NCBI GenBank assembly: GCA_040388195.1
Contig: JAZKCF010000008.1
Location: forward strand, 1,831-65,830
Direction of reading: 5' to 3'
From: Pseudomonadota bacterium
GTDB lineage: Bacteria > Pseudomonadota > Gammaproteobacteria > Burkholderiales > DATLHW01
Length of the DNA: 64,000 nt
Position numbers and translations under genes: made by a program. Positions 3,412 through 59,753 of the stretch are shown piece after piece (position 1 is the stretch's first letter; each line of letters opens with the position of its first letter). Below the pieces are notes generated by a model, which worked only from the letters and a program-made list of their open reading frames with translations, made no database searches and was not told where the DNA came from.

Positions 3412-4503
3412 ATGCGAGTGGATAACATCCTTCCGCTCACTAGAATGAAAGCATCACCTTATCCCAGCCTCGATCTCCTGAGCACTGCCGTCCTGCTACT
3501 GAATCACCGTTTGCTGATTCAGTATGCAAATCCAGCGGCGGAAATTCTATTTGGCTTGAATCGCACTACATCGACTCGAACCCCCTTAGATCAACTGTTA
3601 GTAGGTAGCGAAATATTTAGCGCGACGCTACATACCGTGCTTGATAGTAACGCGGGGTACAACGAACATGATTTAACACTTACCGGACCGAATCAGATCC
3701 CATTGCAGATGAGTTGTACGATCACACCAGTGGATTTTGATGGCGCAGCAGTGCTGCTTGAGTTCCGGCAGATGGATCAACAATTGCGCCTTGCTCGCGA
3801 GGAGCGAATTCGCGAACATCAAGAATACAACCGCGAACTAATCCGTAATCTTGCTCATGAAATCCGCAATCCTCTCGGCGGCATCCGTGGCGCGGCACAA
3901 CTGCTGGAGCGAGAGTTGTCACGTCCTGACTTGCATGAATACACCGGCGTTATTATCGAAGAAACTAGCCGACTACAAGCACTGATGGATCGATTGCTTA
4001 CACCTCACCGCCCGCCGCAATTTACTTCGCTTAACATTCACGAAGTGCTGGAACGAGTCAAAAGCCTTATTCTTGCCGAATCGCAAGAAAGCCTTACCAT
4101 TCGGCGCGATTACGACGTCAGTCTGCCGACTATCGTAGGCGACAAGGAACAGCTTATCCAAGCGATATTAAATATAGCCCGCAATGCAGCCCAAGCACTA
4201 CAAGGCACAGGAGAGATCACGCTTCGCACGCGAGTCGCCAGGCAAGTAACACTCGCCAAGAAACGCTATCGGCATGCAGTGCAAATAGCGATTATCGATA
4301 ATGGGCCGGGGATTCCGGAAGAGATAAGGGACAAGATTTTTTATCCGCTCGTTACCGGTCGCCACGGCGGCAACGGACTCGGCTTGTCGCTCGCACAACA
4401 TTATGTTCAGCAACACCACGGCACCATCGAATTCACGACGCAATCCGAGCATACTTGCTTCATAATTTCTCTTCCGATCATTAACAATAATGGAGAAAAA
4501 TGA
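3412..4503 (+). CDS. ntrB: nitrogen regulation sensor histidine kinase NtrB
   Basis: H-box HEIRNPLGGIRGAAQLL, N/G boxes (NGPGIP, GGNGLGL), position upstream of ntrC. Confidence 0.9.
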   Translation: MRVDNILPLTRMKASPYPSLDLLSTAVLLLNHRLLIQYANPAAEILFGLNRTTSTRTPLDQLLVGSEIFSATLHTVLDSNAGYNEHDLTLTGPNQIPLQMSCTITPVDFDGAAVLLEFRQMDQQLRLAREERIREHQEYNRELIRNLAHEIRNPLGGIRGAAQLLERELSRPDLHEYTGVIIEETSRLQALMDRLLTPHRPPQFTSLNIHEVLERVKSLILAESQESLTIRRDYDVSLPTIVGDKEQLIQAILNIARNAAQALQGTGEITLRTRVARQVTLAKKRYRHAVQIAIIDNGPGIPEEIRDKIFYPLVTGRHGGNGLGLSLAQHYVQQHHGTIEFTTQSEHTCFIISLPIINNNGEK

Positions 4504-41360: not shown

Positions 41361-41436
<76 letters not shown>

Positions 41437-49592: not shown

Positions 49593-49656
49593 ACATAACG
49601 TAGAGTTGAGGAGACTGCGCGGCTTTTTGCGCAACTCCCTCGAACGCCCGTTTAGC
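49593..49656 (-). repeat. attC-like site A (64 bp)
   Basis: Minus strand reads GCTAAAC-GGGC-GTTCGAGGGAGTTGCGC...GCGCAGTCTCCTCAAC-TCTAC-GTTATGT. The TAA stop of the upstream ORF lies inside the first box. Confidence 0.55.
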
Positions 49657-50086
49657 TGGCACGAACTGGGAAGGACTCGGTAACAAGGCTAAGTTCTGCA
49701 AGGGTTTTCTGCAACTGCGTTTGATCTAAGGTTAATTCGAACACGAGACGATTGCCGGTGCCTGGTATGTCTATTGCCGTGCCCTTAAGAAGTATTTCCC
49801 CACGGCCATTTCCATGAAGCAGCAGCGACAATTGCTCCTCCATTGTGGAAAACTTTGCTATACCGTTCAACGAGCGATACAGCTCGATAAGCTGGTTATG
49901 AAAACTTACTAATTCCTCTGTAAGGAACGCGGCGTCATACTTGCCCGAGAACGCGCCAGAGACAACCAACACACGGACACGAAGCCAGTTGTCGTCGAAA
50001 TATTCTCCGACGGGGTTACGCTTATAACCAACCACTTGCACTTCAATGCGCTCGCGACTGTTGCTGCCGATGGAAAATGATGACAT
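49652..50086 (-). CDS. cassette ORF 6, hypothetical (144 aa)
   Basis: ATG at 50086 (MSSFSIGS...), 8 nt after the GTTAGCC box. The track start at 50137 reads through the attC-like site. Confidence 0.55.
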   Translation of the reverse strand: MSSFSIGSNSRERIEVQVVGYKRNPVGEYFDDNWLRVRVLVVSGAFSGKYDAAFLTEELVSFHNQLIELYRSLNGIAKFSTMEEQLSLLLHGNGRGEILLKGTAIDIPGTGNRLVFELTLDQTQLQKTLAELSLVTESFPVRAS

Positions 50087-50094
50087 GGATTGAC

Positions 50095-50184
50095 GGCTAA
50101 CGGCCCAATTGAAGGACGCCCGCCCCGATGCTTGCATTAAGAAGTAACATTATTCGCTCACCGCTTTCGAATATAGTGTTAGAG
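50095..50184 (-). repeat. attC-like site B (family 2, 90 bp)
   Basis: Minus strand reads CTCTAAC-ACTAT-ATTCGAAAG...CCTTCAATT-GGGCC-GTTAGCC. It shares the blocks CGCCCCGATGCTT and AACATTATTCGC with sites C and E. Confidence 0.6.
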
Positions 50185-50571
50185 CGCATTTTCATACACA
50201 GCCGGCTCATTGCGGCAAATTACTGAAACGCAGTCATTTCCACCGGCAACCAAACACTCCTTGGCTTCGGGATTCATTGCAGAGATAAGACTTCCTTCTC
50301 GGTTGGCTTCTTGTGATAACCAACCTCCCCCTGTGACCTCAAACAACCCACCATTAGGTGTTGAGCATTCCGGCCAATATTCTAGGAGGTCACGTTCATC
50401 GAGAACGCGAAAACCGATTGTGTCGATAAATTCAACGACCAATGCCGTGGCATTCTCAGCGCCTTGCACACGAATAGATAGCCTTCCAAGCCCGTATTCG
50501 AGCCCATTCACTTCTGAGCCACGAGGGAAGGAAACCTTTGAGTTCAGTGGCCGAGCCGAAACTTTAGCCAT
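50179..50571 (-). CDS. cassette ORF 5, hypothetical (130 aa)
   Basis: In-frame ATG at 50571 (MAKVSARPL...) just after the GTTACGG box. The track start at 50619 is a GTG inside the attC-like site. Confidence 0.5.
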   Translation of the reverse strand: MAKVSARPLNSKVSFPRGSEVNGLEYGLGRLSIRVQGAENATALVVEFIDTIGFRVLDERDLLEYWPECSTPNGGLFEVTGGGWLSQEANREGSLISAMNPEAKECLVAGGNDCVSVICRNEPAVYENAL

Positions 50572-50579
50572 GGCATGCG

Positions 50580-50671
50580 CCGTAACGGATAAATTGAAAG
50601 GTTCGTCCGCCTCGAACACCTTTCAAAAAAAGTGGGTTCATCGGCCGGTGCCTTTCGAACGCCCGGTCAGC
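50580..50671 (-). repeat. attC-like site C (family 2 relative, degenerate first box)
   Basis: Minus strand reads GCTGACC-GGGCG-TTCGAAAGG...CCTTTCAATTTATCC-GTTACGG. Its 5' arm is shared with site A and its 3' arm with sites B and E. Confidence 0.45.
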
Positions 50672-50681
50672 AGTATTTGGG

Positions 50682-51101
50682 CTACTTCTTACCATGGGGA
50701 AAATTGAGTTGCTCAAACATTAGACGATTATATTCGGAGACATACTCTTGAAGTGCATTCAGACGTTGGGAAGCTTCTTCCCCGAGAAGTGTTTCACAAG
50801 AAGGGCCGAATTTCTTAACGCCCTGCTTCCAAGGCGGCTCAATCTTTGAAACGTCACCTGCGGGAACAGAATATCCGAGGATCATATCATTGCACTGAAC
50901 TACCGAAAGATAACGTTTATCCCCAGACTTTAGCGCATCTGCGACCGCTTCCTTTGGTGGTACCTGGAGTAGTATTTTTTCGTCCAGGGTAGGTTGCTGC
51001 GACCATCCAGACGTAGCAAAAAGCACGGCAAGAATCGTAACTTTGGAACGAATCATAAGATTGCTAACGCATCGACGTAAGCGATTAGCCAGCGCGTTCA
51101 C
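50682..51101 (-). CDS. cassette 4, second ORF: hypothetical N-terminally anchored/secreted protein
   Basis: 139 aa with a hydrophobic N-terminus (VTILAVLFATSGW). It overlaps the upstream ORF by 4 nt. Confidence 0.5.
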   Translation of the reverse strand: MNALANRLRRCVSNLMIRSKVTILAVLFATSGWSQQPTLDEKILLQVPPKEAVADALKSGDKRYLSVVQCNDMILGYSVPAGDVSKIEPPWKQGVKKFGPSCETLLGEEASQRLNALQEYVSEYNRLMFEQLNFPHGKK

Positions 51102-51580
51102 TCGCGAACTCCTTTGCGAAACTGCTCGTAGGTGTACCAGGCCGCATCAGGAGCTGCGTGGATCTCAATGGGAAACCGGGGCTGACCAGCGAGTGCCTTG
51201 TTGAGAGCAGTAAAGAAGTCGTCTTCCGACCGCGCATAGAAGGTCCATTCGCGCAGGTTCTCGCCTGTTGACACCAGAACAAGCACGCTGGCTCCTGACT
51301 TTTCGACGAGTGGTGCAAGTAGATCTTCCATGCGATCCATTGCTTCGCGCTCCTTGGGCGCTGGCATGCCCGAATCGGACTTGTACTTCCACACGATAAT
51401 AACGCGATCAGGGAAGGTCGACCGCTGAAACCCCTGAAGGAACGACTTGGCGTACCGAAAGACTATTGTGCGTTCAGTTCCCTGTTGCTTGGAGACAGCG
51501 GTTGCCCACTCTGTGATTTCCGCTGACGAGACGGGAAGAGAAAGCAAGGCGACAAGAACGAAGGCAAGAATACGCTTCAT
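51098..51580 (-). CDS. cassette 4, first ORF: DUF695-like protein with signal peptide
   Basis: 160 aa with the signal peptide MKRILAFVLVALLSLPVSSA and the pattern IVWKYKSDSGMP...REAMDRMEDLL recalled from DUF695. Confidence 0.55.
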   Translation of the reverse strand: MKRILAFVLVALLSLPVSSAEITEWATAVSKQQGTERTIVFRYAKSFLQGFQRSTFPDRVIIVWKYKSDSGMPAPKEREAMDRMEDLLAPLVEKSGASVLVLVSTGENLREWTFYARSEDDFFTALNKALAGQPRFPIEIHAAPDAAWYTYEQFRKGVRE

Positions 51581-51593
51581 ATAACGGCTAGCC

Positions 51594-51673
51594 GATTAAC
51601 GTAACAGGCGCACGACGGAAAATCGAGCAGAGAAAGAACGATTATCGGCGCGTCCTGGTTCACGAGGTTAGGC
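51594..51673 (-). repeat. attC-like site D (family 1, 80 bp)
   Basis: Minus strand reads GCCTAAC...GTGAACCAGGACGCGCC...CGTCGTGCGCCTGTTAC-GTTAATC. The arms are near-identical to site F. Confidence 0.65.
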
Positions 51674-52090
51674 TTTAGCATAGAACTTGACGATCTCTTG
51701 CTCCCGCTCGTTGGCCGAGATGTGTAGTACGAGAGTTTGCGTCAACTCGACATTTGGATGGAATGCGTTATTCTTGCAGAACCAGAACACTTCAGCCATC
51801 GTCTCGTCTTCGTGCCATGTCGTCATGACGAACTTGTTCTCCGGAATCTCTTTGAAATTGAACTCCTCGATATTGGCCATGTCCACCGAGTCATCCCATG
51901 AACTGCAGTTCGTTCCCCATGCCATAGTGTAAAGACATCCGGACTGCACGAGCCAGACGCTAACCGACGCTTGCCAGTCCGGGGACACCTCGGCCTCCGC
52001 TACGATGACTGCGCGAAATGGAGCGAGGGTAGAGATGTCTGGCAATACAGCTCCCATTGGCGCCAGATGCAGATAGGTGGGTGGTGACAT
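51668..52090 (-). CDS. cassette ORF 3, hypothetical (140 aa)
   Basis: ATG at 52090 (MSPPTYLHL...), 3 nt after the GTTAGGC box. The TAA stop lies inside the GCCTAAC box of site D. The track start (TTG 52207) reads through site E. Confidence 0.55.
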   Translation of the reverse strand: MSPPTYLHLAPMGAVLPDISTLAPFRAVIVAEAEVSPDWQASVSVWLVQSGCLYTMAWGTNCSSWDDSVDMANIEEFNFKEIPENKFVMTTWHEDETMAEVFWFCKNNAFHPNVELTQTLVLHISANEREQEIVKFYAKA

Positions 52091-52093
52091 GAA

Positions 52094-52181
52094 GCCTAAC
52101 GAAATTGAGAGGGGCGCGCCCCGATGCTTCCTTGAAAAACCAACATTATTCGCGCGTCCTTTCTCGAATGGGGTGTTAGAT
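52094..52181 (-). repeat. attC-like site E (family 2, 88 bp)
   Basis: Minus strand reads ATCTAAC-ACCCC-ATTCGAGAAAGG...CCCTCTCAAT-TTC-GTTAGGC. Both boxes match RYYYAAC and GTTRRRY exactly. Confidence 0.7.
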
Positions 52182-52238
52182 TGGAGAGCAACCATACGAT
52201 GTTGCAATCACATTTTTTCGTTACTTCATCTGTATTTG

Positions 52239-53204
52239 TCAAGTGTTGTTGGATGAGGTGTCTTCGCACTCATAAGGGCCAAACATTTCAATACCAGACG
52301 CGGCAGTTACTGGTAGGCTTACTTGTAGCTCATCTACATCCACCAATCGTCTGCGCAGCGAAAAGCTATCACGAACTTCGTGCATTTCATAAAACCGAAC
52401 TTCCTTTTCGCGCCCCTCTATAGCCTTGATCACTGAATGTATGATTGATGGCGGACAGCGAAGACCGAAAACAACCTCAGTTAGAAGTAACGGAGAGTCT
52501 TGTAGACCTTGCTTGCCGATCAAGCGCCATTCGGACTCATATTTCCAGCCACTCGCCTTTCGAAGCAATACATCTCGGTCCAAATCCACCATAGCCTTTT
52601 CGGCGTTATGCAGGAACGCATCACAAAGTATTGAAGTTCTAATTGCGCGACTACCTCCATAGATAACTTTTTGCAACTGAGGGACAGGATTACGCTTTGT
52701 GCTGTATCCGATACAAATTCCTTGGTGCTGATCACCATAGTGGCTCCAAAGAAGAGGATTTGAATACGATGTGGAGAAACAGCAAACACCTCTTTCATAC
52801 CAACGGCGCAACTCACACTCAATAGCTTGCATTAGTAACCAGGACTCGTTTTCTTCCAATGCTCCCTCGTAGTCTGGATTCGTCGCGTTGTAGGCTATGT
52901 TGGCCAGCTCATTTTCTGTCTCACGTCGGGCTCTCTTCGTTGCGTGCTCACTGGCAGTATTTCCTCTTATACGAGCATGGCTCAAATGGGAAAGCACTTC
53001 GGATGAAACTCTCTTGCTAAAGAAAAAAGCAAGAAGCTTTCTGAGATCATCATTATTGGAGTCACAACTGAGTGTTGGGCTACAGTCTAGGGGATCATTA
53101 AACGCGCCGGGATGAGAAAAGAAAAGAGTGTCATAGCATAGTGAATCCAGCGTTGTCGTACTAAACGCGCGATAACGGTAGAAAGTCTTGGGTTGGTTTG
53201 TCAT
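52239..53204 (-). CDS. cassette ORF 2, DUF2971-like protein
   Basis: 321 aa. The N-terminal FYRYRAFS...TLDSLCYDTLFFSHPGAFNDPLDC is typical of DUF2971. Confidence 0.6.
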   Translation of the reverse strand: MTNQPKTFYRYRAFSTTTLDSLCYDTLFFSHPGAFNDPLDCSPTLSCDSNNDDLRKLLAFFFSKRVSSEVLSHLSHARIRGNTASEHATKRARRETENELANIAYNATNPDYEGALEENESWLLMQAIECELRRWYERGVCCFSTSYSNPLLWSHYGDQHQGICIGYSTKRNPVPQLQKVIYGGSRAIRTSILCDAFLHNAEKAMVDLDRDVLLRKASGWKYESEWRLIGKQGLQDSPLLLTEVVFGLRCPPSIIHSVIKAIEGREKEVRFYEMHEVRDSFSLRRRLVDVDELQVSLPVTAASGIEMFGPYECEDTSSNNT

Positions 53205-53235
53205 GAAACTTGGTTTTGTAATCGTTGAGTCTAAC

Positions 53236-53318
53236 GATTAACGTAACAGGCGCACGACGAAATGCTAAGCAGAGAAGGAGCGATTATTCGTGCGTCCTGG
53301 TTCACGACTGAGTTAGAG
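53236..53318 (-). repeat. attC-like site F (family 1, 83 bp)
   Basis: The first 24 nt (plus strand GATTAACGTAACAGGCGCACGACG) are identical to site D. The distal arm TGCGTCCTGGTTCACGA is also shared, and the centre is variable. Confidence 0.65.
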
Positions 53319-53585
53319 TTGCGTTTGGATTGCATAGACAACAAACCTCTCACCATTCAAATCGATAGTTTTGCACCAGACATTCTTTCGGTTGGGGACT
53401 TCAGCAAACTCACCACCGTGTGCCTTTTGAGACAACTCTTTTTTCAGCGGCGGCGAGAGACCAGGAAGGGCGTTCTCTGGTAAGTCACCAGACCAACTTG
53501 AAACGAACCCTTTAAAGTTACTGTAACTACCTTGCGCAACATAGGTCGAGTCTCTGAAAGAGGCAATGTATGTATAGAGTGGCAT
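53313..53585 (-). CDS. cassette ORF 1, hypothetical (90 aa)
   Basis: The ATG at 53585 lies 5 nt after a perfect GTTAGAT core (53591-53597). The stop is next to site F. Confidence 0.5.
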   Translation of the reverse strand: MPLYTYIASFRDSTYVAQGSYSNFKGFVSSWSGDLPENALPGLSPPLKKELSQKAHGGEFAEVPNRKNVWCKTIDLNGERFVVYAIQTQL

Positions 53586-54253
53586 TGAAAATCTAACAGT
53601 GTTTATACGGACCCGTCGATCTGTATATCAATTATTAATAATGACAGCCATTATGCGTCGTACATTATTGATCTACAACATGGGATCAGTTTTTGCATCT
53701 CTATAAAAACCTCAATATTGGGGGCGCGACGAAGCGTAAAACTTCAATTAGGGTTCTCTGCTTTTTCATAAGAAGTGACAATCTTATGGGATGAATCGGT
53801 TAATCCCCTACACTTGCGTGATCAACACTCCATCGTTTGACGGGAAGCACGGACCGGGTTCGGCACGAACGGCCGCATTAGGAACTGTACTTCTGCGGTC
53901 GCTTTGATCGGGTATTGCCTGATCGTTGAAAAGCGATGCGTTCGGTTCCGCTGCATTGCTACCATCGAGTCGTGTGAGTACGATATACCACTGTGGCACG
54001 AAGTTGCTGATCGACAAAGGCAACATGCCAGAAGATATTCCCATGGATGAAGTAACGCTCTCCAAGATAATCGAATGTCGCAAAGCAATTATGCATGTCA
54101 GCACGCTTGTCACAATCGATCCGTTACTAGATATAAAATGGTTGAGAAAACCTCATAATCTGCCTTGACAACGAATTCGATCAGTGTACGATTTAAAGTG
54201 TTCTTCGTTAGCTGAGTCAGCTCGCCTCACATGCGCAAAGTGTGGCCTTTAAA

Positions 54254-54301
54254 GCCGTGAGACCCCTGGTAGGAACGGCATAACCGCAAGGTTTGGGGTA
54301 A
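54254..54301 (+). other. type I conserved pseudoknot-forming element, copy 1
   Basis: GCCGTGAGACCCCtggtaggAACGGCatAACCgcaaGGTTtGGGGTAA. Pairings are CCGT/ACGG and ACCCC/GGGGT, with an inserted GCAA-tetraloop hairpin. Confidence 0.6.
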
Positions 54302-54634
54302 TGAGTCATTCACCATCAGACGAGAAATCATTTCTCGTTACTAGCACGATGCATTTGATTTCTCTTTGAGAAAGTATCGTGCCGATCATTTGCACGATTA
54401 CCAATCGACTACAGCATTGAAGAAAGTCGTACGTCCACGTAATGGCGATCACGATATTTTTTCCGGCTTGAAAACGATGTGACGTTCCTCGTTTATAGCC
54501 GCGTTACTCACCTTGACCGGTGATGCATTGTCGCAGTCGATTCATCGTTTCACACCCCTGTCCGGGAGGCTTTTGTCTCCCCTTGGGGCGACATGACCTC
54601 CCTTTTTTTGTTTGTCATTAGAAAGGAGATGTTC

Positions 54635-55087
54635 ATGTCCGACCTTACCCACAATGAAGCAAATACCAACGCCACCGACGGTTCCGTATTCTTTGACCTC
54701 CATGTCAATGGTATCGGCTATCTCAATCGCGTCCGCGAAGTGAAGGTGAAGAAAGGCCAATTCCTGGCCTGCTCCATCAGCGCCATTCGTGGAGATACAT
54801 CCGATGTCGATTACACGAAGTTCGATGTCCGTGTGACCGGGACTGAAGCGAAAGAAATCGTCAAGCAGTTGAAGTCGACCGTCGATGCTAAAAAAGCGGT
54901 GATCGTCGGCTTCAAGCTGGGTGACATTTATCCAGAGAAATTCGTGTACGAAAACGGTGATCGCAAAGGTGAAGTCGGCGTTGTCATTAAAGGCCGGCTT
55001 CTCAAGGTGCGATTCGCCAAGGTAGACGGTATGAACATCGATCTGCCGAGGGAAGTCCCTGCCCAAGCGACCGGAACCAACGGTTGA
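54635..55087 (+). CDS. DUF3577-like (STY4534-like) ICE ssDNA-binding/replication-associated protein
   Basis: About 150 aa with FFDLHVNGIGYLNRVREVKVKKGQFLACSISAIRG. AAGGAG RBS before the ATG at 54635. Confidence 0.65.
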   Translation: MSDLTHNEANTNATDGSVFFDLHVNGIGYLNRVREVKVKKGQFLACSISAIRGDTSDVDYTKFDVRVTGTEAKEIVKQLKSTVDAKKAVIVGFKLGDIYPEKFVYENGDRKGEVGVVIKGRLLKVRFAKVDGMNIDLPREVPAQATGTNG

Positions 55088-55102
55088 ACTAACTGGGATA
55101 TC

Positions 55103-55142
55103 GACGGAACACTCGCGCCCTTTCGGCGGCGGGTGTTCCGTC
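55103..55142 (+). other. long GC-rich hairpin after the DUF3577-like gene
   Basis: GACGGAACAC...GTGTTCCGTC is a 10-bp stem with an inner CGCC/GGCG pairing. No T-run follows. Confidence 0.5.
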
Positions 55143-55173
55143 ACTTACTGGATAGCAATCGAAAGGAGTTTTC

Positions 55174-55656
55174 ATGAATTGCATAAACAACCAATTACGG
55201 CCACTGCCGACACGAAAATCCATCACGGTCGAAATCGATGCGGCAAAAGCACCGGCCTTTAATGAACTGCTCAACGAATTTTTCAACGGAACGCGTTATC
55301 AAGCAATCGTTGAAAAAAAGCGAGCGGATCAGGAAACACAAATTGCATCTCTGCAGCATCTTTATAACTTGACTCAAAAGCATTCAGGAACTGGGCAAGC
55401 GCGTGTGATCGCTCATTTCTTGGCTTGCCTGTACAACGGTTATCGCTTTCAATTTGATCTGACCGATTTTCGATCGCTTGATACCGATATCTTCCAGCAT
55501 TGCCTCAATGTGTTGTGGCTTGATAATCAACCGGCGCAAGAAGTGCATTGTTACTTCCAAAACGGCGGCGAATTATGGGAGCGCATGATCGAGGAATATG
55601 GACTGAAAGACCGGAGCAAGATAAATGCGTTGGCAAGTAGTAGCCGAAACATTTAG
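55174..55656 (+). CDS. hypothetical ICE protein
   Basis: 160 aa with an AAGGAG RBS 7 nt upstream. No motif recognised. Confidence 0.5.
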   Translation: MNCINNQLRPLPTRKSITVEIDAAKAPAFNELLNEFFNGTRYQAIVEKKRADQETQIASLQHLYNLTQKHSGTGQARVIAHFLACLYNGYRFQFDLTDFRSLDTDIFQHCLNVLWLDNQPAQEVHCYFQNGGELWERMIEEYGLKDRSKINALASSSRNI

Positions 55657-55782
55657 CTTCATGTCTCAGGCAGATGAGACAGTTATGTTTTCGCATCATC
55701 GCCAGTTCCATCGCTTTAACGCTGAGCCTTACCTTGAACCAAATTCCCGTTTTGCACGTTTCGGACAAAACGTGCGCCATAA

Positions 55783-55827
55783 ACCGTGAGACCCCTCGAA
55801 AGAACGGCGGGCGCAAGCCTGGGGTAA
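55783..55827 (+). other. type I conserved pseudoknot-forming element, copy 2
   Basis: ACCGTGAGACCCCtcgaaagAACGGCgGGGCgcaaGCCTGGGGTAA, preceded by the hairpin GCACGTTT-cggac-AAACGTGC. Confidence 0.6.
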
Positions 55828-56120
55828 TCCGTAATTCCTCGCGAATGGCGTCTGGGACTCCCTGACACCTGCTCGGATCAACTTGGCGGTTATCCTGGTG
55901 CCGTCACAGTATCTAGCGCTTCTCGCGGGCGTCGTCTTCGTCGGCGTGAATCGCTGCCGAATTTCTTGAAGTAACTACTGCCGTCGTGATTTTGTCGATC
56001 GAGATGAAATCCCGGCGGCGCCATTTTTTAATTTCCTGCGGGATATGCAATTTCCCCGCAGGGAAGTTGCGTCTTTCGCGGGCCTTTTTGTTCCATCACC
56101 CACGCAAAGGATACGCAATC

Positions 56121-56684
56121 ATGATTACCGTTAGTGGCACCCTACTCGTTAAAACGGTTCACGGTCGTCGCGGTGATTTCGCCGTCGGCACGCTGCTCAC
56201 CGAAATCGGCGAGTTCAAAGTGAAAGACACCATTCTCGATCAATTTTCCGAAGGGGAATATCGCGGTCATTTCGCAATCGGACGCATCTATCAAGGCTCC
56301 TATGCATGGAAAGGAGCAACGATCAGTGAGCTGCGCGCGAATATCACCGATATAGAACTGGAAGAGGCGAATGAGAAACCGGTTCAATCGACGGAGAACC
56401 CGTCGTCGGCGGATCCGATTGAAGAACCAAGTCCGGTAGCAGATGTGCCGGAGGACTCAAGTACATCAGCGGTGATCGATACGCAGCATGCGATGCCTTC
56501 GTCGTTGGACACAGCGGCGGAGACAGATGATATCGAATCAGCTATCGCGTTATCGCTACCCGTAAAACTTGATCCAACTGTCGACCGTGCGCTCTTTAGA
56601 ACGCAACGCGATCGATTAAAAACAGCCGGCTACCGCTTCGACGCTTCAAAGCAGACTTGGCTTTCGTCTGCTACGGATGAATAG
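56121..56684 (+). CDS. DUF3275-like ICE protein
   Basis: MITVSGTLLVKTVHGRRGDFAVGTLLTEIGEFKVKD N-terminus and an acidic C-terminal half. ATG at 56121 with an AAGGA RBS. Confidence 0.55.
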   Translation: MITVSGTLLVKTVHGRRGDFAVGTLLTEIGEFKVKDTILDQFSEGEYRGHFAIGRIYQGSYAWKGATISELRANITDIELEEANEKPVQSTENPSSADPIEEPSPVADVPEDSSTSAVIDTQHAMPSSLDTAAETDDIESAIALSLPVKLDPTVDRALFRTQRDRLKTAGYRFDASKQTWLSSATDE

Positions 56685-57006
56685 GTGATTTTCAATTAAC
56701 AATCATGAGTGGTATTTGCCCGCATTCGCGGGCATACCGATGGGGCGTCTCATCGGCATGCCCGTGAGCTCCGGGTGTATTCAGCCTGGGTAAGCGACCG
56801 CCCGAGAAAGGTCGCGCCCTTGGCGCTTGCGGCGCGCAGTTCATACAAGGAACGCGCTAGGAATCCATATATTTGTTGGTGAGCCTCTTTATACAAAGGG
56901 GCCGCTAAAGCGTGTCAAAACTATCCAAGCACGTTTTAGCAGCCGTTTTGTCGTTGTTCAACCGTGACTGCCGGCAGCAGTCCGATTAACGTCCGTTAGA
57001 CGTTAT

Positions 57007-57052
57007 GCCGTGAGACCCCTTGAAAGAACGGCTGGCGATTAGCCTGGGGTAA
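57007..57052 (+). other. type I conserved pseudoknot-forming element, copy 3
   Basis: GCCGTGAGACCCCttgaaagAACGGCtGGCgattaGCCTGGGGTAA, preceded by the hairpin AACGTC-cgtta-GACGTT. Confidence 0.6.
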
Positions 57053-57136
57053 CCGTACTTACACATCACCAACCTGGTGGGAAGCCGATTCCCGCCGGGG
57101 AGAGGGTTTTCCGCTTTTCTTAAGGAGATCCTCGCC

Positions 57137-57727
57137 ATGAAAAATCACCACGTCATCGACGACATTCGCGCTCTGCCGGATGCCGCGTTATTGCAACAAT
57201 TTTTTCACGCCGACACGCGGCAAATTCTTGCTGAATGCAATGAAAGCTTACTCGCTGTGCTTGCACGGCGTAATTGTTCCAAGCGGCAACGAACGTTGCT
57301 TGCCGGTATTGAAGTAGCGCGTCGGGCAGTGCTTGAAGAACTGAGCGCAATGAAGTCGCTGACATCACCATGTTTAGTTAACGAGTATCTGCATCTTCAC
57401 TTTCTGGGGTGCGAAGAAGAACGGTTCTGCGCTGTTTGGCTTGATGCGAGAAACAGACCCATAGCGTTCGACGAATTGTTTCGCGGAACGCTGACGCAGG
57501 CCAGTGTCTATCCACGTGAAGTGGCGAGACGCGCATTGCAACGAAATGCAGCGAGTGTGATTTTTGCGCACAACCATCCGAGTGGCACGGCTGAACCATC
57601 TCACGCGGATGAGCTGTTAACGCAAAATCTTAAAAAAACGCTCGCATTGGTTGACGTGCGTGTATTGGATCATTTCATCGTCGCCGGCGCAGCCACGCTG
57701 TCGTTTGCACAACGCGGACTGCTCTAG
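57137..57727 (+). CDS. radC: RadC-like JAB/MPN domain protein
   Basis: HNHPSG...PSHAD JAMM motif. AAGGAG RBS before the ATG at 57137. Confidence 0.85.
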   Translation: MKNHHVIDDIRALPDAALLQQFFHADTRQILAECNESLLAVLARRNCSKRQRTLLAGIEVARRAVLEELSAMKSLTSPCLVNEYLHLHFLGCEEERFCAVWLDARNRPIAFDELFRGTLTQASVYPREVARRALQRNAASVIFAHNHPSGTAEPSHADELLTQNLKKTLALVDVRVLDHFIVAGAATLSFAQRGLL

Positions 57728-57749: not shown

Positions 57750-57768
57750 CTTATTTACTTTTCTTCAT

Positions 57769-57815
57769 CAACCCTCGCGGGGAATCAGCCCGCATGGGCG
57801 AATGGTTTCCTGCGA
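57769..57815 (+). other. type II conserved intergenic element, copy a
   Basis: CAACCCTCGCGGGGaatCAGCCCgcatGGGCGAatggTTTCCTGCGA, directly upstream of the methylase gene. Confidence 0.5.
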
Positions 57816-57834
57816 TTTCTTTCAGGAAAATATC

Positions 57835-58950
57835 ATGGCACTCATGTTTCAGCGCTTGGCGCGCAACTTTATCAAAGCTGGTTATTTTCCAACCGACGAG
57901 GTAACACTTTCGCGCATCCTAAATGCCATCGATATCGGTGGTGCCCGTTTGCGAGTACTTGATCCTTGTTGTGGCGAAGGTACTGCGATCGCTGAGGTAT
58001 GCAACCACCTTGGCGAATGTGGCGCCGACATCGATAGTTTCGGCATCGAGTACGACCTGGAACGAGCATGGCACGCGAAATCGATTGTCAGTACCGTGAT
58101 TCATGCCGATATGAACGATGTATTTGTCACAGCTCGCTCGATGGGACTGTTATTTCTCAATCCTCCCTACGGCAATGCCGTCCGGGATCAAGCGGAGACA
58201 GGTTCTGGAAAACGCAGTGAACGTATTGAAACGGCGTTTGTGAAGCGGTGCATGGGCTGGCTGCAATTTGGCGGGCTGCTCGTACTCATCGTGCCGCACT
58301 ACGCTTTCGATCGGGAACTCTCTACGATTGTTGCGCGCAACTTTGAGCGTGTAACGATTTTCACCGCACCGGAGCCACGCTTCAAGCAAGTGGTGCTCTT
58401 TGGGGCGAAGCGACGTAGCGATGTTCCTGATATGGACGTGGCAGCGATGTTGGAGAAAGTAGGCCGCTCGACGTATGGCAGTCCGGAAATGCCATCCGTG
58501 TTACCGCAAGATTGGAGTGGCATGCCCTACGAAATTCCATCACCAAAGGAAACGGCCGAATTTCGATTCGTCTCCGTAAAGCTCGATGGCCCGCAACTTG
58601 CCGTCGAATTGGATCGATTGAAAAAATCGACACTATGGCCACAATTCGATGCCATTTTTCAGACAAACGCCCGACCACATCGTCGACCGTTACGCGACTT
58701 ATCTCGCTGGCATTTGGCTCTGGCGCTTGCGGCAGGCCAAGTGGCTGGTGTGGTTCGAAGCCATGATGGTAGATCGCTGCTAATCAAGGGCGATACCTTC
58801 AAGGAAAAGAGCGCTACTGTCGAGCGTCAAGAACATGCGGATGGCACCTTTGCCGAAACGAGAATCCTGACGGACAAATTCGTGCCCGTCATCACCGGCA
58901 TCGACTTTACGCCGGGTCCTAATTTCGGCGAAATCGTCACCATACGTTAA
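57835..58950 (+). CDS. SAM-dependent DNA methyltransferase (NPPY type)
   Basis: Motif I VLDPCCGEG, then motif IV LFLNPPYG. ATG at 57835 with an AGGAAA RBS. Confidence 0.8.
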   Translation: MALMFQRLARNFIKAGYFPTDEVTLSRILNAIDIGGARLRVLDPCCGEGTAIAEVCNHLGECGADIDSFGIEYDLERAWHAKSIVSTVIHADMNDVFVTARSMGLLFLNPPYGNAVRDQAETGSGKRSERIETAFVKRCMGWLQFGGLLVLIVPHYAFDRELSTIVARNFERVTIFTAPEPRFKQVVLFGAKRRSDVPDMDVAAMLEKVGRSTYGSPEMPSVLPQDWSGMPYEIPSPKETAEFRFVSVKLDGPQLAVELDRLKKSTLWPQFDAIFQTNARPHRRPLRDLSRWHLALALAAGQVAGVVRSHDGRSLLIKGDTFKEKSATVERQEHADGTFAETRILTDKFVPVITGIDFTPGPNFGEIVTIR

Positions 58951-58958
58951 TCATTTAC

Positions 58959-59009
58959 CAACCCACTCGCGAGGGAGTCTGTCCCTCACGGGGCATGGCT
59001 TCCCTGCGA
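58959..59009 (+). other. type II conserved intergenic element, copy b
   Basis: CAACCCACTCGCGAGGGAgtctgTCCCTCACGGGGCATGGCTTCCCTGCGA. Confidence 0.5.
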
Positions 59010-59031
59010 CTTTTTGTCAAAAGGAGTAACC

Positions 59032-59676
59032 ATGCCACTGTATCGAGTTAGAGAAATGTCTGATGTTTTCGTCGACGCTTGCGTTCGCGATACATCGGGA
59101 GATCTCTTGTTTTTATCCTGTTACGGCCGTGATACGGCGCTGACGCAGCTTTTCGCCGCGTTTTCGCTGAGTCCGGCCCAAGGCGGTTTTACGCAAATCA
59201 CATTGGAAGCAGACGATGGCTGCGTTCATCGCGTAGGTATCGCTGGTGCAGAACGTTTTAAGAAACTGGCCGGACGATTGCCGAAGGACAATCTATTCGG
59301 CAATGTGGCGCAGACGTGGATCTACGATCCTATCGTTTTGGAACCAGATCGATCCAATCGGATCGGTTGGGTATTGCTCGATCTCAACTCAGCTTCGAGC
59401 GAGGCAAGCGCAATTAGGACAGAAATCGACCGGCGAGTTTGGGCGATGTATCAGATTCTGTCTCCTGTGCCCTTGCTACCAGCATGGGAACGACCTATCC
59501 GTAACGCAACACGAGAGGCCGTTCATGACATGCAGGCTTCCCCGTTTCCGGCGCTTGGACGCATTTCTGCATTGCTCGTGCATTTGCCGGCTGAATTTAG
59601 CGAGCAAGTGTCGCAGCTCGTGAAAACCCGTGTCATCGATATCGTTACGCCAACTCAGGTAGCGATAGCAGCCTAA
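59032..59676 (+). CDS. hypothetical protein between methylase and helicase
   Basis: 214 aa with an AAGGAG RBS. No motif recognised. Confidence 0.5.
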   Translation: MPLYRVREMSDVFVDACVRDTSGDLLFLSCYGRDTALTQLFAAFSLSPAQGGFTQITLEADDGCVHRVGIAGAERFKKLAGRLPKDNLFGNVAQTWIYDPIVLEPDRSNRIGWVLLDLNSASSEASAIRTEIDRRVWAMYQILSPVPLLPAWERPIRNATREAVHDMQASPFPALGRISALLVHLPAEFSEQVSQLVKTRVIDIVTPTQVAIAA

Positions 59677-59689
59677 ACGTTACTTCAAT

Positions 59690-59736
59690 CAACCCTCGCG
59701 GGGCCAACGCCCTGCTGGGGCGTTGCCTCGCCTCGA
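59690..59736 (+). other. type II conserved intergenic element, copy c
   Basis: CAACCCTCGCGGGGcCAACGCCCtgctGGGCGTTGcCTCGCCTCGA. Confidence 0.5.
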
Positions 59737-59753
59737 ATCTTTATGGAGGCATT

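Follow-up and report, generated by a model that had tools for sequence, protein, structure and literature searches.

Repeated pseudoknots upstream of early genes of an integrative conjugative element as candidate domains of radC/STAXI-class leader RNAs

The 64-kb stretch of DNA analysed here (the window; contig JAZKCF010000008.1, positions 1,831 to 65,830) carries one short structured element three times, at 54254, 55783 and 57007, always on the plus strand and upstream of genes for DUF3577, DUF3275 and RadC proteins of an integrative conjugative element (ICE). What such a repeated element does in front of these genes is the question raised by this locus. Each copy is probably the pseudoknot domain of a modular, structured, cis-acting leader RNA, which would belong to the same class as the RNA motifs radC and STAXI and represent a flavour that their models miss. 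The core reads GCCGUGAGACCCCU-N6-AACGGC, followed by a hairpin and then by GGGGUAA.

Three plus-strand copies had been claimed in an initial annotation made from the letters alone, and a search for the exact core CCGTGAGACCCCT-N6-AACGGC returned just three matches in the window (54255, 55784 and 57008, all plus strand), with 0.00 expected from shuffles. The downstream genes named there were also recovered by Pfam. The spacer of seven nucleotides (nt) given for the core had to be revised, as a search with N7 returned nothing; the true spacer is 6 nt, or N7 if counted to ACGGC. Helix P1 (GCCGU/ACGGC) could be read directly from the sequence, with its outermost pair replaced by an A·C mismatch in copy 2, which left 4 base pairs (bp). 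The pseudoknot helix (PK) was formed by ACCCC in the P1 loop with GGGGU located 3' of an inserted hairpin, P2. In copies 1 to 3 the P2 stems were AACC-GCAA-GGUU, (G)GGC-GCAA-GCC(U) and GGC-GAUUA-GCC; the pairing was kept and the sequence changed, and the covariation that had been proposed across the copies is correct for this hairpin. A covariance model built from the three window copies (R1) scored them at 66-76 bits, with the next best match in the window at 11 bits. Genes separate the copies, which follow each other at distances of 1529 and 1224 nt; every copy precedes a gene of its own, and there is no tandem array.

Close relatives of the window gave further copies. Related loci and contigs were fetched and given L-numbers, L108-L112 being the contigs of the closest DUF3577 homologues, and a further set of 68 loci was anchored on DUF3577. 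R1 found ten additional copies in L108-L112, at 52-72 bits, which preceded DUF3577, DUF3275 and DUF6573 genes, and nothing convincing in the 68 DUF3577-anchored loci but one weak match in L045. The scan of relatives with a model of the three copies, as the initial annotation had suggested, was productive among the closest homologues and not in the wider set. In the alignment of these 13 copies (A11; three from the window and ten from L108-L112), the core GCCGUGAGACCCCU-N-G-NN-GAACGG and the GGGGU strand were almost invariant, P1 deviated only by the A·C of copy 2 and by one G·U, and P2 occurred as six different stems which always folded, with GCAA or GAAA loops and one GAUUA. A metagenome scan with a pattern of 21 bases returned four contigs, one of them by chance, and added five copies on three contigs; two of the five stood on the contig already seen as L108, leaving three new ones. 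In one of these metagenome copies (L117:1595) GAGCCCCCC replaced GAGACCCCU. The count for the window lineage was 18 copies (13 in A11 plus five from the metagenome scan, two of these on the L108 contig), and the window flavour is rare, with about six independent contigs carrying it. When viral contigs were scanned for GTGAGACCCCT-N6-AAC, 33 matches came up, all by chance and without P1 or PK context.

The weak match in L045 kept the same topology with both helices changed, P1 to CCGGU/ACCGG and PK to GAUCUCC/GGAGAUC. Structure-only descriptors were used for copies of this kind. The first two were dropped as too permissive, with similar plus- and minus-strand counts (467 vs 540; 302 vs 259). 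A tight descriptor placed the PK 5' strand 1-3 nt after P1, with a tail of 4-9 nt ending in A, P2 0-2 nt after the 3' strand of P1 (P1'), and the PK 3' strand 0-1 nt after P2; at a score >=15 it gave 128 matches on the gene strand vs 40 on the opposite strand. Together with two covariance models, the descriptor recovered about 100 related copies in about 80 related loci, of which nearly all stood on the gene strand. At least seven sequence flavours could be told apart, each of them present many times per locus: GCUCGU-c[AGUCCC]ugaa-ACGAGC..[GGGAUU], GCAGCUC-c[GGAUCG]ggga-GAGCUGC..[CGAUCC], ACCGGU-uug[AUCUCC]ugaga-ACCGGU..[GGAGAU], GCAUC-uuc[GGAUCC]ggugga-GAUGC..[GGAUCC], GCACGG-a[AGGCCUC]ugcaa-CCGUGC..[GAGGCUU], the canonical radC form and the window form. 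The P2 loops across flavours were mostly GCAA. Cross-flavour alignment with MAFFT was rejected, since it could not align the flavours structurally, and for this reason no single multi-flavour alignment or model was built.

Two side observations concern the minus-strand matches. AUCUCC-flavour elements stood on the minus strand of L046 and L047 (descriptor positions 3698 and 3707), presumably in an inverted gene module, so that part of the minus-strand background of the descriptor is probably genuine. L059 (minus strand, 9613 and 1181) and L061 (minus strand, 5414 and 3417; all in reverse-complement descriptor coordinates) carried a second repeated pseudoknot-like element opposite DUF3577, which reads GGCCG-cu[GUGCCCGU]gggua-CGGUC-cg-GCACAUC-cgag-GAUGUGC-[AUGGGCAC].

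The covariation of the helices could be measured in the commonest flavour. Its covariance model (R2), which holds no window-lineage sequence, gave 75 matches in 1.16 Mb, 73 of them on the plus strand, and pairs including the pseudoknot were counted in 61 R2 matches, 49 of them distinct. As related sequences were aligned by fitting them to the model, the following figures are supportive and are not probabilities: among the 49 distinct copies 97.7% of the cells were paired vs 85.0% in shuffles, the covariation score was 0.377 vs 0.143 in shuffles (0/500 reached it), and slid registers gave 0.03-0.06. Double-sided changes were seen in nine pairs (P1 4/6, P2 4/4, PK 1/6), and PK also showed G·U/G-C alternation. 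The H-type pseudoknot with a variable inserted hairpin that had been proposed from the three copies is backed in all three helices by these comparative data, and the covariation of P1 and PK came from flavours other than that of the window lineage. Non-Watson-Crick cells were mostly G·U (48, of which one position gave 33) vs 8 A·C or C·A and 12 others; this excess indicates that the folded strand is the sense side.

Each pseudoknot was one part of a longer leader (Table 1). The promoter before copy 1 was kept among orthologues (TTGACA-16-TAGGAT in L112 and TTGACT-16-TATATT in L111), where it was followed by the palindrome GGCUGAGUCAGCC, a hairpin named P0 and the pseudoknot. A TTGACA-16-TAnnnT promoter was present within 160 nt in 23/70 leaders vs 25/1000 random windows, and its distance was fixed: -124/-125 in the DUF3577 leaders of flavour 1, -65 to -67 in canonical radC leaders and -85/-86 in the window lineage. 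These fixed distances put the pseudoknot 40-100 nt into the predicted transcript in promoter-bearing leaders. A conserved promoter stands before at least the first leader of each array, and copy 1 lies inside the predicted transcript. The palindrome of copy 1 (IR-A) was the counterpart of the radC/STAXI 5' hairpin GCUGAC-GUU-GUCAGC when compared with the Rfam radC consensus and the STAXI alignment. The palindrome GCTGAGTCAGC was also tried as a repeated operator and rejected, with one exact copy only in the window.

The hairpin preceding each copy had been described as non-homologous; the hairpin is real, and it is actually P0, a conserved and covarying part of the unit. Among orthologues of copy 3 its stem changed from AACGUC/GACGUU to GACGCG/CGCGUC (L111) and CACGCC/GGCGUG (L108), and among those of copy 2 it was GCACGU/ACGUGC or GUGCGU/ACGCAC. 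From copy 2 to DUF3275 a leader of 290 nt was conserved in the alignment of orthologous flanks.

Downstream of the pseudoknot, the copy 3 leader, the flavour-1 leaders and the canonical radC leaders shared a 3' module, CAACCC-CGnGGGGA..UCCCCGCC.GGGGC..UCUCC..U-rich..GGAGA-N-AUG. RNAalifold predicted a helix in it (CCC/GGG + CGGGGA/UCCCCG), and its UCUCC segment can pair with the Shine-Dalgarno (SD) sequence. A hidden Markov model (HMM) of this module, built without window-lineage sequence, was run over the window by nhmmer; the matches were on the plus strand only, each ending at a start codon. The best of them, before RadC, is where common descent of the leader with radC leaders was found. 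The HMM is non-circular evidence, resting on letters outside the core, for homology of the window leaders with radC-type leaders; the pseudoknot core has diverged too far to be detected. As an observation apart, the module in the form CAACCC-CGCGGGGA..CCCCGC..GGGGC..anti-SD..U-rich..GGAG-AUG stood before five ICE genes; at three of them (DUF6094 methyltransferase, a 220-aa open reading frame (ORF) and the SNF2 helicase) the module was present with no pseudoknot upstream. The matches suggest start codons at about 57835 and 59032, not at the longest-ORF starts 57802 and 59014.

Which known RNA the element belongs to was asked of Rfam 15. The scan of the region gave no match at the gathering threshold, STAXI (RF01728) and radC (RF01754) included, and at E<=10 on slices of 4.5 kb, 181 nt (copy 3) and 136 nt (copy 1) only chance matches to miRNA, snoRNA and EBER2 models appeared; the comparison with STAXI that the initial annotation had called for thus found no RF01728 match even at this level. 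The radC gathering threshold of 40 bits was not reached by the window copies, while the same scan gave canonical members 82-106 bits, in pKLC102 and in a plasmid of P. veronii. As modelled, the window element is a member of neither STAXI nor radC. The scan of four other syntenic regions and seven loci of metagenome-assembled genomes (MAGs) gave no match.

The published alignments can be set beside the window copies by topology. The radC consensus is ..[GYAGCC]-n-n[GRYC]UUCRA-[GGCURC]-[variable hairpin]-[GRY-C], with an explicit pseudoknot line SS_cons_1 (Weinberg et al. 2010, PMC2864571), and its core is preceded by a hairpin GCYGRY..GYCRGC (PMC2864571), in agreement with the Rfam consensus. 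The STAXI alignment reads GCUGUC-GUU-GACAGC .. CGCUUC-a-[CAACC]UGAAA-GAAGCG-[CCU-GUUAUC-AGG]-ac-[GGUUG], with a second unit CCGGUG-c-[AGACCUC]UGCAAA-CACCGG...[GGAGGUC] (PMC2864571). Both have a unit in common: P1, 1-3 nt, the PK 5' strand, an A-rich tail, P1', hairpin P2 and the PK 3' strand. The window copies carry exactly this unit, with a longer loop and a different sequence.

The closest relative is the radC motif rather than STAXI, judged by topology, gene context, synteny with pKLC102 and collinear leaders. In radC, as in the window, the P1 loop (n-GRYC-UUCRA in radC) pairs with a strand after a variable tetraloop hairpin, a hairpin stands before the core, a TTGACA promoter lies upstream, and a module with P3 and anti-SD segments lies downstream. 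Sites of radC are potential 5' untranslated regions (UTRs) of radC, methyltransferase, antirestriction and integrase genes (PMC2864571), and like the window copies they occur before radC and other DNA-handling genes, in several copies per ICE of the PAPI-1/ICEclc family and in syntenic places in pKLC102. Syntenic ICE-like plasmids including pKLC102, with the same gene order, were recovered by tblastn with the DUF3275 protein; canonical radC motifs stood at three places in pKLC102 and two in the P. veronii plasmid, in every case preceding early genes, among which are the 'STY4534 family' and DUF3275 clusters. The differences lie in the core and its edges. The P1 loop has 16 nt in the window (GAGACCCCU-N6-A) vs 11 in radC, and PK is ACCCC/GGGGU vs GAUC/GAUC; of the conserved radC loop n-GRYC-UUCRA and flanking CAUGCCC-AG the window shares only 'AGAC' and the terminal A. 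The Rfam radC model has an outer stem and a 3' extension of about 65 nt that the window copies lack, and these copies have P0 as an extra hairpin between palindrome and P1. Palindromes related to the radC 5' hairpin (GCYGRY...GYCRGC) could be recognised at the 5' side of copy 1 (GCUGAGUCAGC) and copy 3 (GACUGC..GCAGUC), not clearly at copy 2, and no outer stem was seen.

The likeness to STAXI that had been pointed out holds for the topology of a single unit, together with the UGAAA-type tail, the preceding GCUGUC-GUU-GACAGC hairpin and the neighbourhood of STAXI, which includes ssb, antirestriction and integrase genes (PMC2864571); it does not extend to STAXI membership as modelled or to the tandem arrangement. 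STAXI occurs as two or three tandem units within about 250 nt, was classed as a small RNA and was reported from Enterobacteriales (PMC2864571), whereas the window copies are 1.2-1.5 kb apart, one per leader.

Part of the radC unit has been met before in ICEclc under another name. Eight of nine transfer-competence promoters of ICEclc share a 27-bp motif (Sulser et al. 2022, PMC9286271), which reads CAT-GCCTGCTGACGTTGTGAGCGACATGCC-AGGCAACC in P81655 and AAT-GCCTGCCGACGTTGTGCGCGACATGCC-CAGGTAGTCC in P58432. Comparison of S3 Fig of PMC9286271 with RF01754 showed that both match the radC consensus cauG-ccc-GCuGacGUuguCaGC-gaCaugCCC-AGGcAGCC; in these two promoters the 27-bp motif is the radC 5' hairpin followed by the start of P1 (AGGCAACC or CAGGTAGTCC). 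BisC peaks were found by chromatin immunoprecipitation at the transfer-competence promoters (PMC12409273). Rapid amplification of 5' cDNA ends gave no result upstream of either ORF81655 or ORF58432, a weak primer-extension product was located about 250 bp upstream of the ORF81655 start (PMC2892462), with the motif at -195 and hence downstream of it, the orf81655 transcript ranked with the most plentiful ones, with 14.5 kb (PMC2892462), and RNA sequencing revealed no read depletion upstream of ORF58432 (PMC9286271). These published data fit a transcribed leader. The ICEclc studies (PMC9286271, PMC12409273) treated the sequence as a DNA promoter motif and did not discuss a pseudoknot, and the radC and ICEclc promoter-motif literatures appear not to cross-reference each other. 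The window belongs to the same ICE family and encodes a DUF2857 protein; its copies differ from P81655 and P58432 in the palindrome and in having a recognisable promoter at copy 1 only.

The most probable explanation is accordingly a leader RNA, and its parts can be stated separately. The early genes of these ICEs have conserved leaders which contain a strand-specific, covarying pseudoknot domain and are collinear with radC leaders; action in cis at the RNA level is what we infer from this. The leader of copy 1 would be a 5' UTR and those of copies 2 and 3 would lie between cistrons, all in front of 'establishment-type' ICE genes, with the proposed order of IR-A palindromic hairpin, P0, pseudoknot (P1, PK and GNRA-capped P2), spacer, P3 and an anti-SD:SD hairpin at the start codon. 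The compact 5'-proximal fold would most likely set the stability or processing of the mRNA, and this fold and the SD-sequestering hairpin together may set the protein output. A factor reading the lineage-specific PK/loop sequence is possibly involved: within a lineage the paralogous leaders have this sequence almost unchanged, from one lineage to another it differs, and P1 and P2 vary; this hints at a sequence-specific partner.

Several points weigh against the leader RNA. Copies 2 and 3 have no recognisable promoter. The minimum-free-energy folds were no better than those of shuffles (z -0.1 to -1.0), so that the support for the structure is comparative and not energetic; the minimum-energy fold takes either P1 or the PK helix, as a pseudoknot would give. 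In the window lineage P1 and PK barely vary and show no compensatory change, P2 being the one helix in A11 that compensates. The descriptor demands pairing, which makes part of the cross-flavour covariation evidence circular, and R2 finds copy 1 only, weakly (13.5 bits, E 0.074), although it is top-ranked in the window. No Rfam family matches, and membership of the class rests on architecture, synteny and flank homology. The radC 5' hairpin has been reported in ICEclc as a DNA promoter motif of the BisDC regulon, and part of the unit, the 5' palindrome, may be read as DNA. In the literature searched there was no functional work on radC or STAXI, and for that reason the stabilising or translation-controlling step is our inference.

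A wider proposal goes with the leader RNA and is put forward tentatively, as a possibility on the doubtful side: radC, STAXI and at least seven unmodelled flavours, that of the window included, could be one large superfamily of leader domains in ICEs of the PAPI-1/ICEclc/SPI-7 type, in which the lineage-specific PK/loop docks a matching ICE or host factor that licenses the expression of establishment genes. If this were true, the BisDC transfer-competence regulon would gain a further layer at the RNA level, with the licensing brought about by antitermination, by protection from decay or by the SD hairpin being opened. The motifs radC and STAXI have been orphan RNAs since 2010, and the core that they share is a single pseudoknot module, of whose diversity the Rfam models see a small part (about 100 copies in about 80 ICE loci missed). 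In the literature searched it is not stated that radC and STAXI are one unit, that most members lie outside the Rfam models, that the leader is modular with an SD hairpin, or that the ICEclc motif overlaps the radC hairpin. The orphan motif becomes a question testable in ICEclc or PAPI-1, namely whether an RNA structure controls the early genes of a very widespread ICE family.

The main alternative is processive antitermination as in the put RNA of phage HK022, in which the pseudoknot, transcribed shortly after initiation, would modify RNA polymerase for read-through of hairpins and U-runs and of the long ICE operon; it is considered unlikely. The position of the domain 40-100 nt downstream of predicted promoters would suit it, as would the recurrence of copies along the gene array, the 14.5-kb ICEclc transcript starting from the radC-bearing orf81655 leader, and GCGGGCUCCCCGC-U7 directly before the ribosome binding site in L108. 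A hairpin with a T-run was also present <=300 nt downstream of 40/73 elements vs 8/73 on the opposite strand and 127/600 random windows. On inspection most of these matches were the anti-SD/U-rich/SD region at the ribosome binding site, which speaks for translation and not termination, and they were rejected as terminators. The distance from pseudoknot to hairpin varies from 30 to 280 nt, and no likeness to put, EAR or nut was found in sequence or structure, nor an Rfam match.

An operator in double-stranded DNA, with GCCGT..ACGGC, ACCCC..GGGGT and the palindrome as half-sites for BisC/DUF2857, BisD or an AcaB-like protein, would turn the covariation into co-evolution of half-site and protein. 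This is improbable for the whole unit: the P2 pairing is kept while its sequence and length vary, with GNRA or UUCG loops, which would be meaningless in duplex DNA, the non-Watson-Crick cells are mostly sense-strand G·U, and the -10 box stands upstream of the palindrome both in copy 1 and in canonical radC leaders. The window does encode DUF2857 and AcaB-like proteins, the BisDC 27-bp motif coincides with the radC 5' hairpin in P81655 and P58432, and PK/loop sequences are uniform within a lineage and different between lineages; for the IR-A palindrome alone the operator reading could apply.

Aptamers of the preQ1-II type are H-type pseudoknots with a hairpin inserted before the last strand. 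The window domain might likewise be a sensor, a riboswitch-like aptamer or a site for a protein or RNA, which relays its occupancy to the SD hairpin and switches the translation of establishment genes after transfer. Strong conservation of the loop and PK nucleotides with varying stems, the anti-SD:SD hairpin at the 3' end and the '? complex' score given to radC for riboswitch potential (PMC2864571) agree with such a sensor. It is nevertheless quite improbable: the loop/PK differs completely between flavours (AGUCCC, GGAUCG, AUCUCC, AGACCCC, GAUC), which speaks against a single small-molecule ligand, the distance to the SD hairpin ranges from 30 to 280 nt without an obvious alternative pairing, and the 3' module is also found without an upstream pseudoknot.

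Single-stranded DNA (ssDNA) of the transferred strand would be a further reading, as an Frpo-like promoter or a primosome (ssi) site acting in the recipient just after entry; the initial annotation had pointed to a resemblance to single-stranded promoter or ssi elements of plasmid leading regions. ICEs transfer as ssDNA, the downstream genes are of leading-region or establishment type (SSB-like, RadC, methyltransferase, helicase), the strand bias fits a strand-specific element, and Weinberg et al. raised an ssDNA reading for STAXI (PMC2864571); Frpo and ssi elements are also structured and strand-specific, and they too precede early or establishment genes on conjugative elements. The Frpo hairpin is long and imperfect and rebuilds the -35/-10 boxes in the transferred strand (PMC9849209, PMC11541004), whereas the window has pseudoknotted stems of 3-7 bp and, before copy 1, an ordinary conserved promoter. 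Stems of 4-7 bp cannot rebuild such boxes and none of the hexamers was seen in them, and the sense-strand wobbles become C·A mismatches in the template strand, where an Frpo-type element must fold. The unit is also contiguous with an SD-sequestering RNA hairpin, and GNRA and UUCG loops favour RNA, as argued in PMC2864571. The ssDNA reading did not survive these observations well and is very improbable.

That the element has no function of its own, being the conserved 5' flank of duplicated genes or the product of gene conversion, would agree with the nearly identical cores of the three copies and the lack of compensatory change in P1 and PK of the lineage, and it can practically be set aside, as the downstream gene families are unrelated, the flanks beyond the unit cannot be aligned between copies, P2 diverges by compensation, and the architecture recurs with different sequences and covariation in many lineages.

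Table 1. Coordinates of the leader parts, 3' module matches and neighbouring genes in the window
Feature	Position	Strand	Evidence and remarks
tRNA-Thr(CGU)	41361-41436		Upstream
ParA, 520-aa protein, DUF2857, AcaB-like, DUF3158, SSB			Upstream
Sigma-70-like promoter TTGACA-16-TACGAT, before copy 1	54165..54192	+	10/12 matches; predicted transcription start site near 54199
Palindrome AGCTGAGTCAGCT (IR-A), copy 1	54210..54222	+	Kept in window, L112, L111
P0 hairpin, copy 1 (CAUGC-GCAAA-GUGUG)	54228..54246	+	Fold; orthologues keep the hairpin with different sequence
Pseudoknot, copy 1	54254..54301	+	P1 54254-58/54275-79; P2 54282-85/54290-93, GCAA loop; PK 5' ACCCC 54262-66, 3' GGGGU 54295-99; R1 65.7 bits
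3' leader module before DUF3577 start codon	54562..54636	+	P3-like hairpin, anti-SD CCUCCC, U-run, SD AAGGAGA; nhmmer E 0.15; conserved orthologue in L112
DUF3577	54635-55087		Pfam
DUF7673			Pfam; between DUF3577 and DUF3275
P0 hairpin, copy 2 (GCACGUUU-CGGACA-AAACGUGC)	55754..55775	+	Fold; covaries with L111 (GUGCGU/ACGCAC)
Pseudoknot, copy 2	55783..55827	+	P1 55784-87/55804-07; P2 55809-12/55817-20, GCAA loop; PK 5' 55791-95, 3' 55821-25; R1 71.5 bits
DUF3275	56121-56684		Pfam
IR-A, copy 3 (GACUGC-CGGCA-GCAGUC)	56970..56986	+	Kept in L111, L108; aligns with GCTGTCGGTCACAGC of other lineages
P0 hairpin, copy 3 (UAACGUC-CGUUA-GACGUUA)	56987..57005	+	Fold; covaries in L111, L108
Pseudoknot, copy 3	57007..57052	+	P1 57007-11/57028-32; P2 57034-36/57042-44, GAUUA loop; PK 5' 57015-19, 3' 57046-50; R1 75.5 bits
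3' leader module, copy 3: CAACC..GGUGGGAA..UUCCCGCC..GGGG (P3), anti-SD UUUCC, U-rich, SD AAGGAGA	57067..57131	+	HMM E 4.7e-9; ends at RadC start codon (57137); RNAalifold predicts helix there
RadC	57137-57727		Pfam
3' module match before DUF6094 methyltransferase	57767-57837	+	HMM E 3.3e-4
3' module match before 220-aa ORF	58967-59034	+	HMM E 9e-5
3' module match before SNF2 helicase	59688-59749	+	HMM E 0.06
DUF6094 methyltransferase, SNF2 helicase			Pfam; after RadC

The gene order of the window is that of PAPI-1/pKLC102/ICEclc-type integrative conjugative elements, and DUF2857 is the domain of ICEclc BisC. Relatives of the ICE genes were found in beta- and gammaproteobacterial MAGs (Thiobacillus, Methylococcales and others). 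The tRNA-Thr(CGU) gene was directly followed by ParA (41563 onward), the 520-aa protein, DUF2857 and the remainder of the ICE backbone; the tRNA-Thr end is probably the attachment end of the ICE, which would extend at least to the end of the window. In the interval from SSB to the DUF3577 leader, a minus-strand ORF block with little or no annotation was present at 49650-54110 (DUF7684 at 51668-52207, DUF2971 at 52239-53204, and others). A related contig had SLATT and HEPN_AbiU2 genes at this place, and the block may be variable cargo or a defence hotspot.

Two minor observations were made in the spacer between DUF3275 and RadC. At 56752-56790, GCCCGUGAGCUCCGGGUGUAUUCAGCCUGGGUAAGCG resembles the core (GUGAG...GGGUAAG) without the 3' strand of P1 and without an R1 score, and may be a decayed fourth copy. 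At 56880-56955 two strong hairpins, GCCUCUUU-AUAC-AAAGGGGC and GCUAAAGCGUG...CACGUUUUAGC, the second of which gave a spurious MIR7510 match, were followed by GCCGUUUUG; they were conserved in L111 and L108, and this segment looks like the terminator region of the DUF3275 unit.

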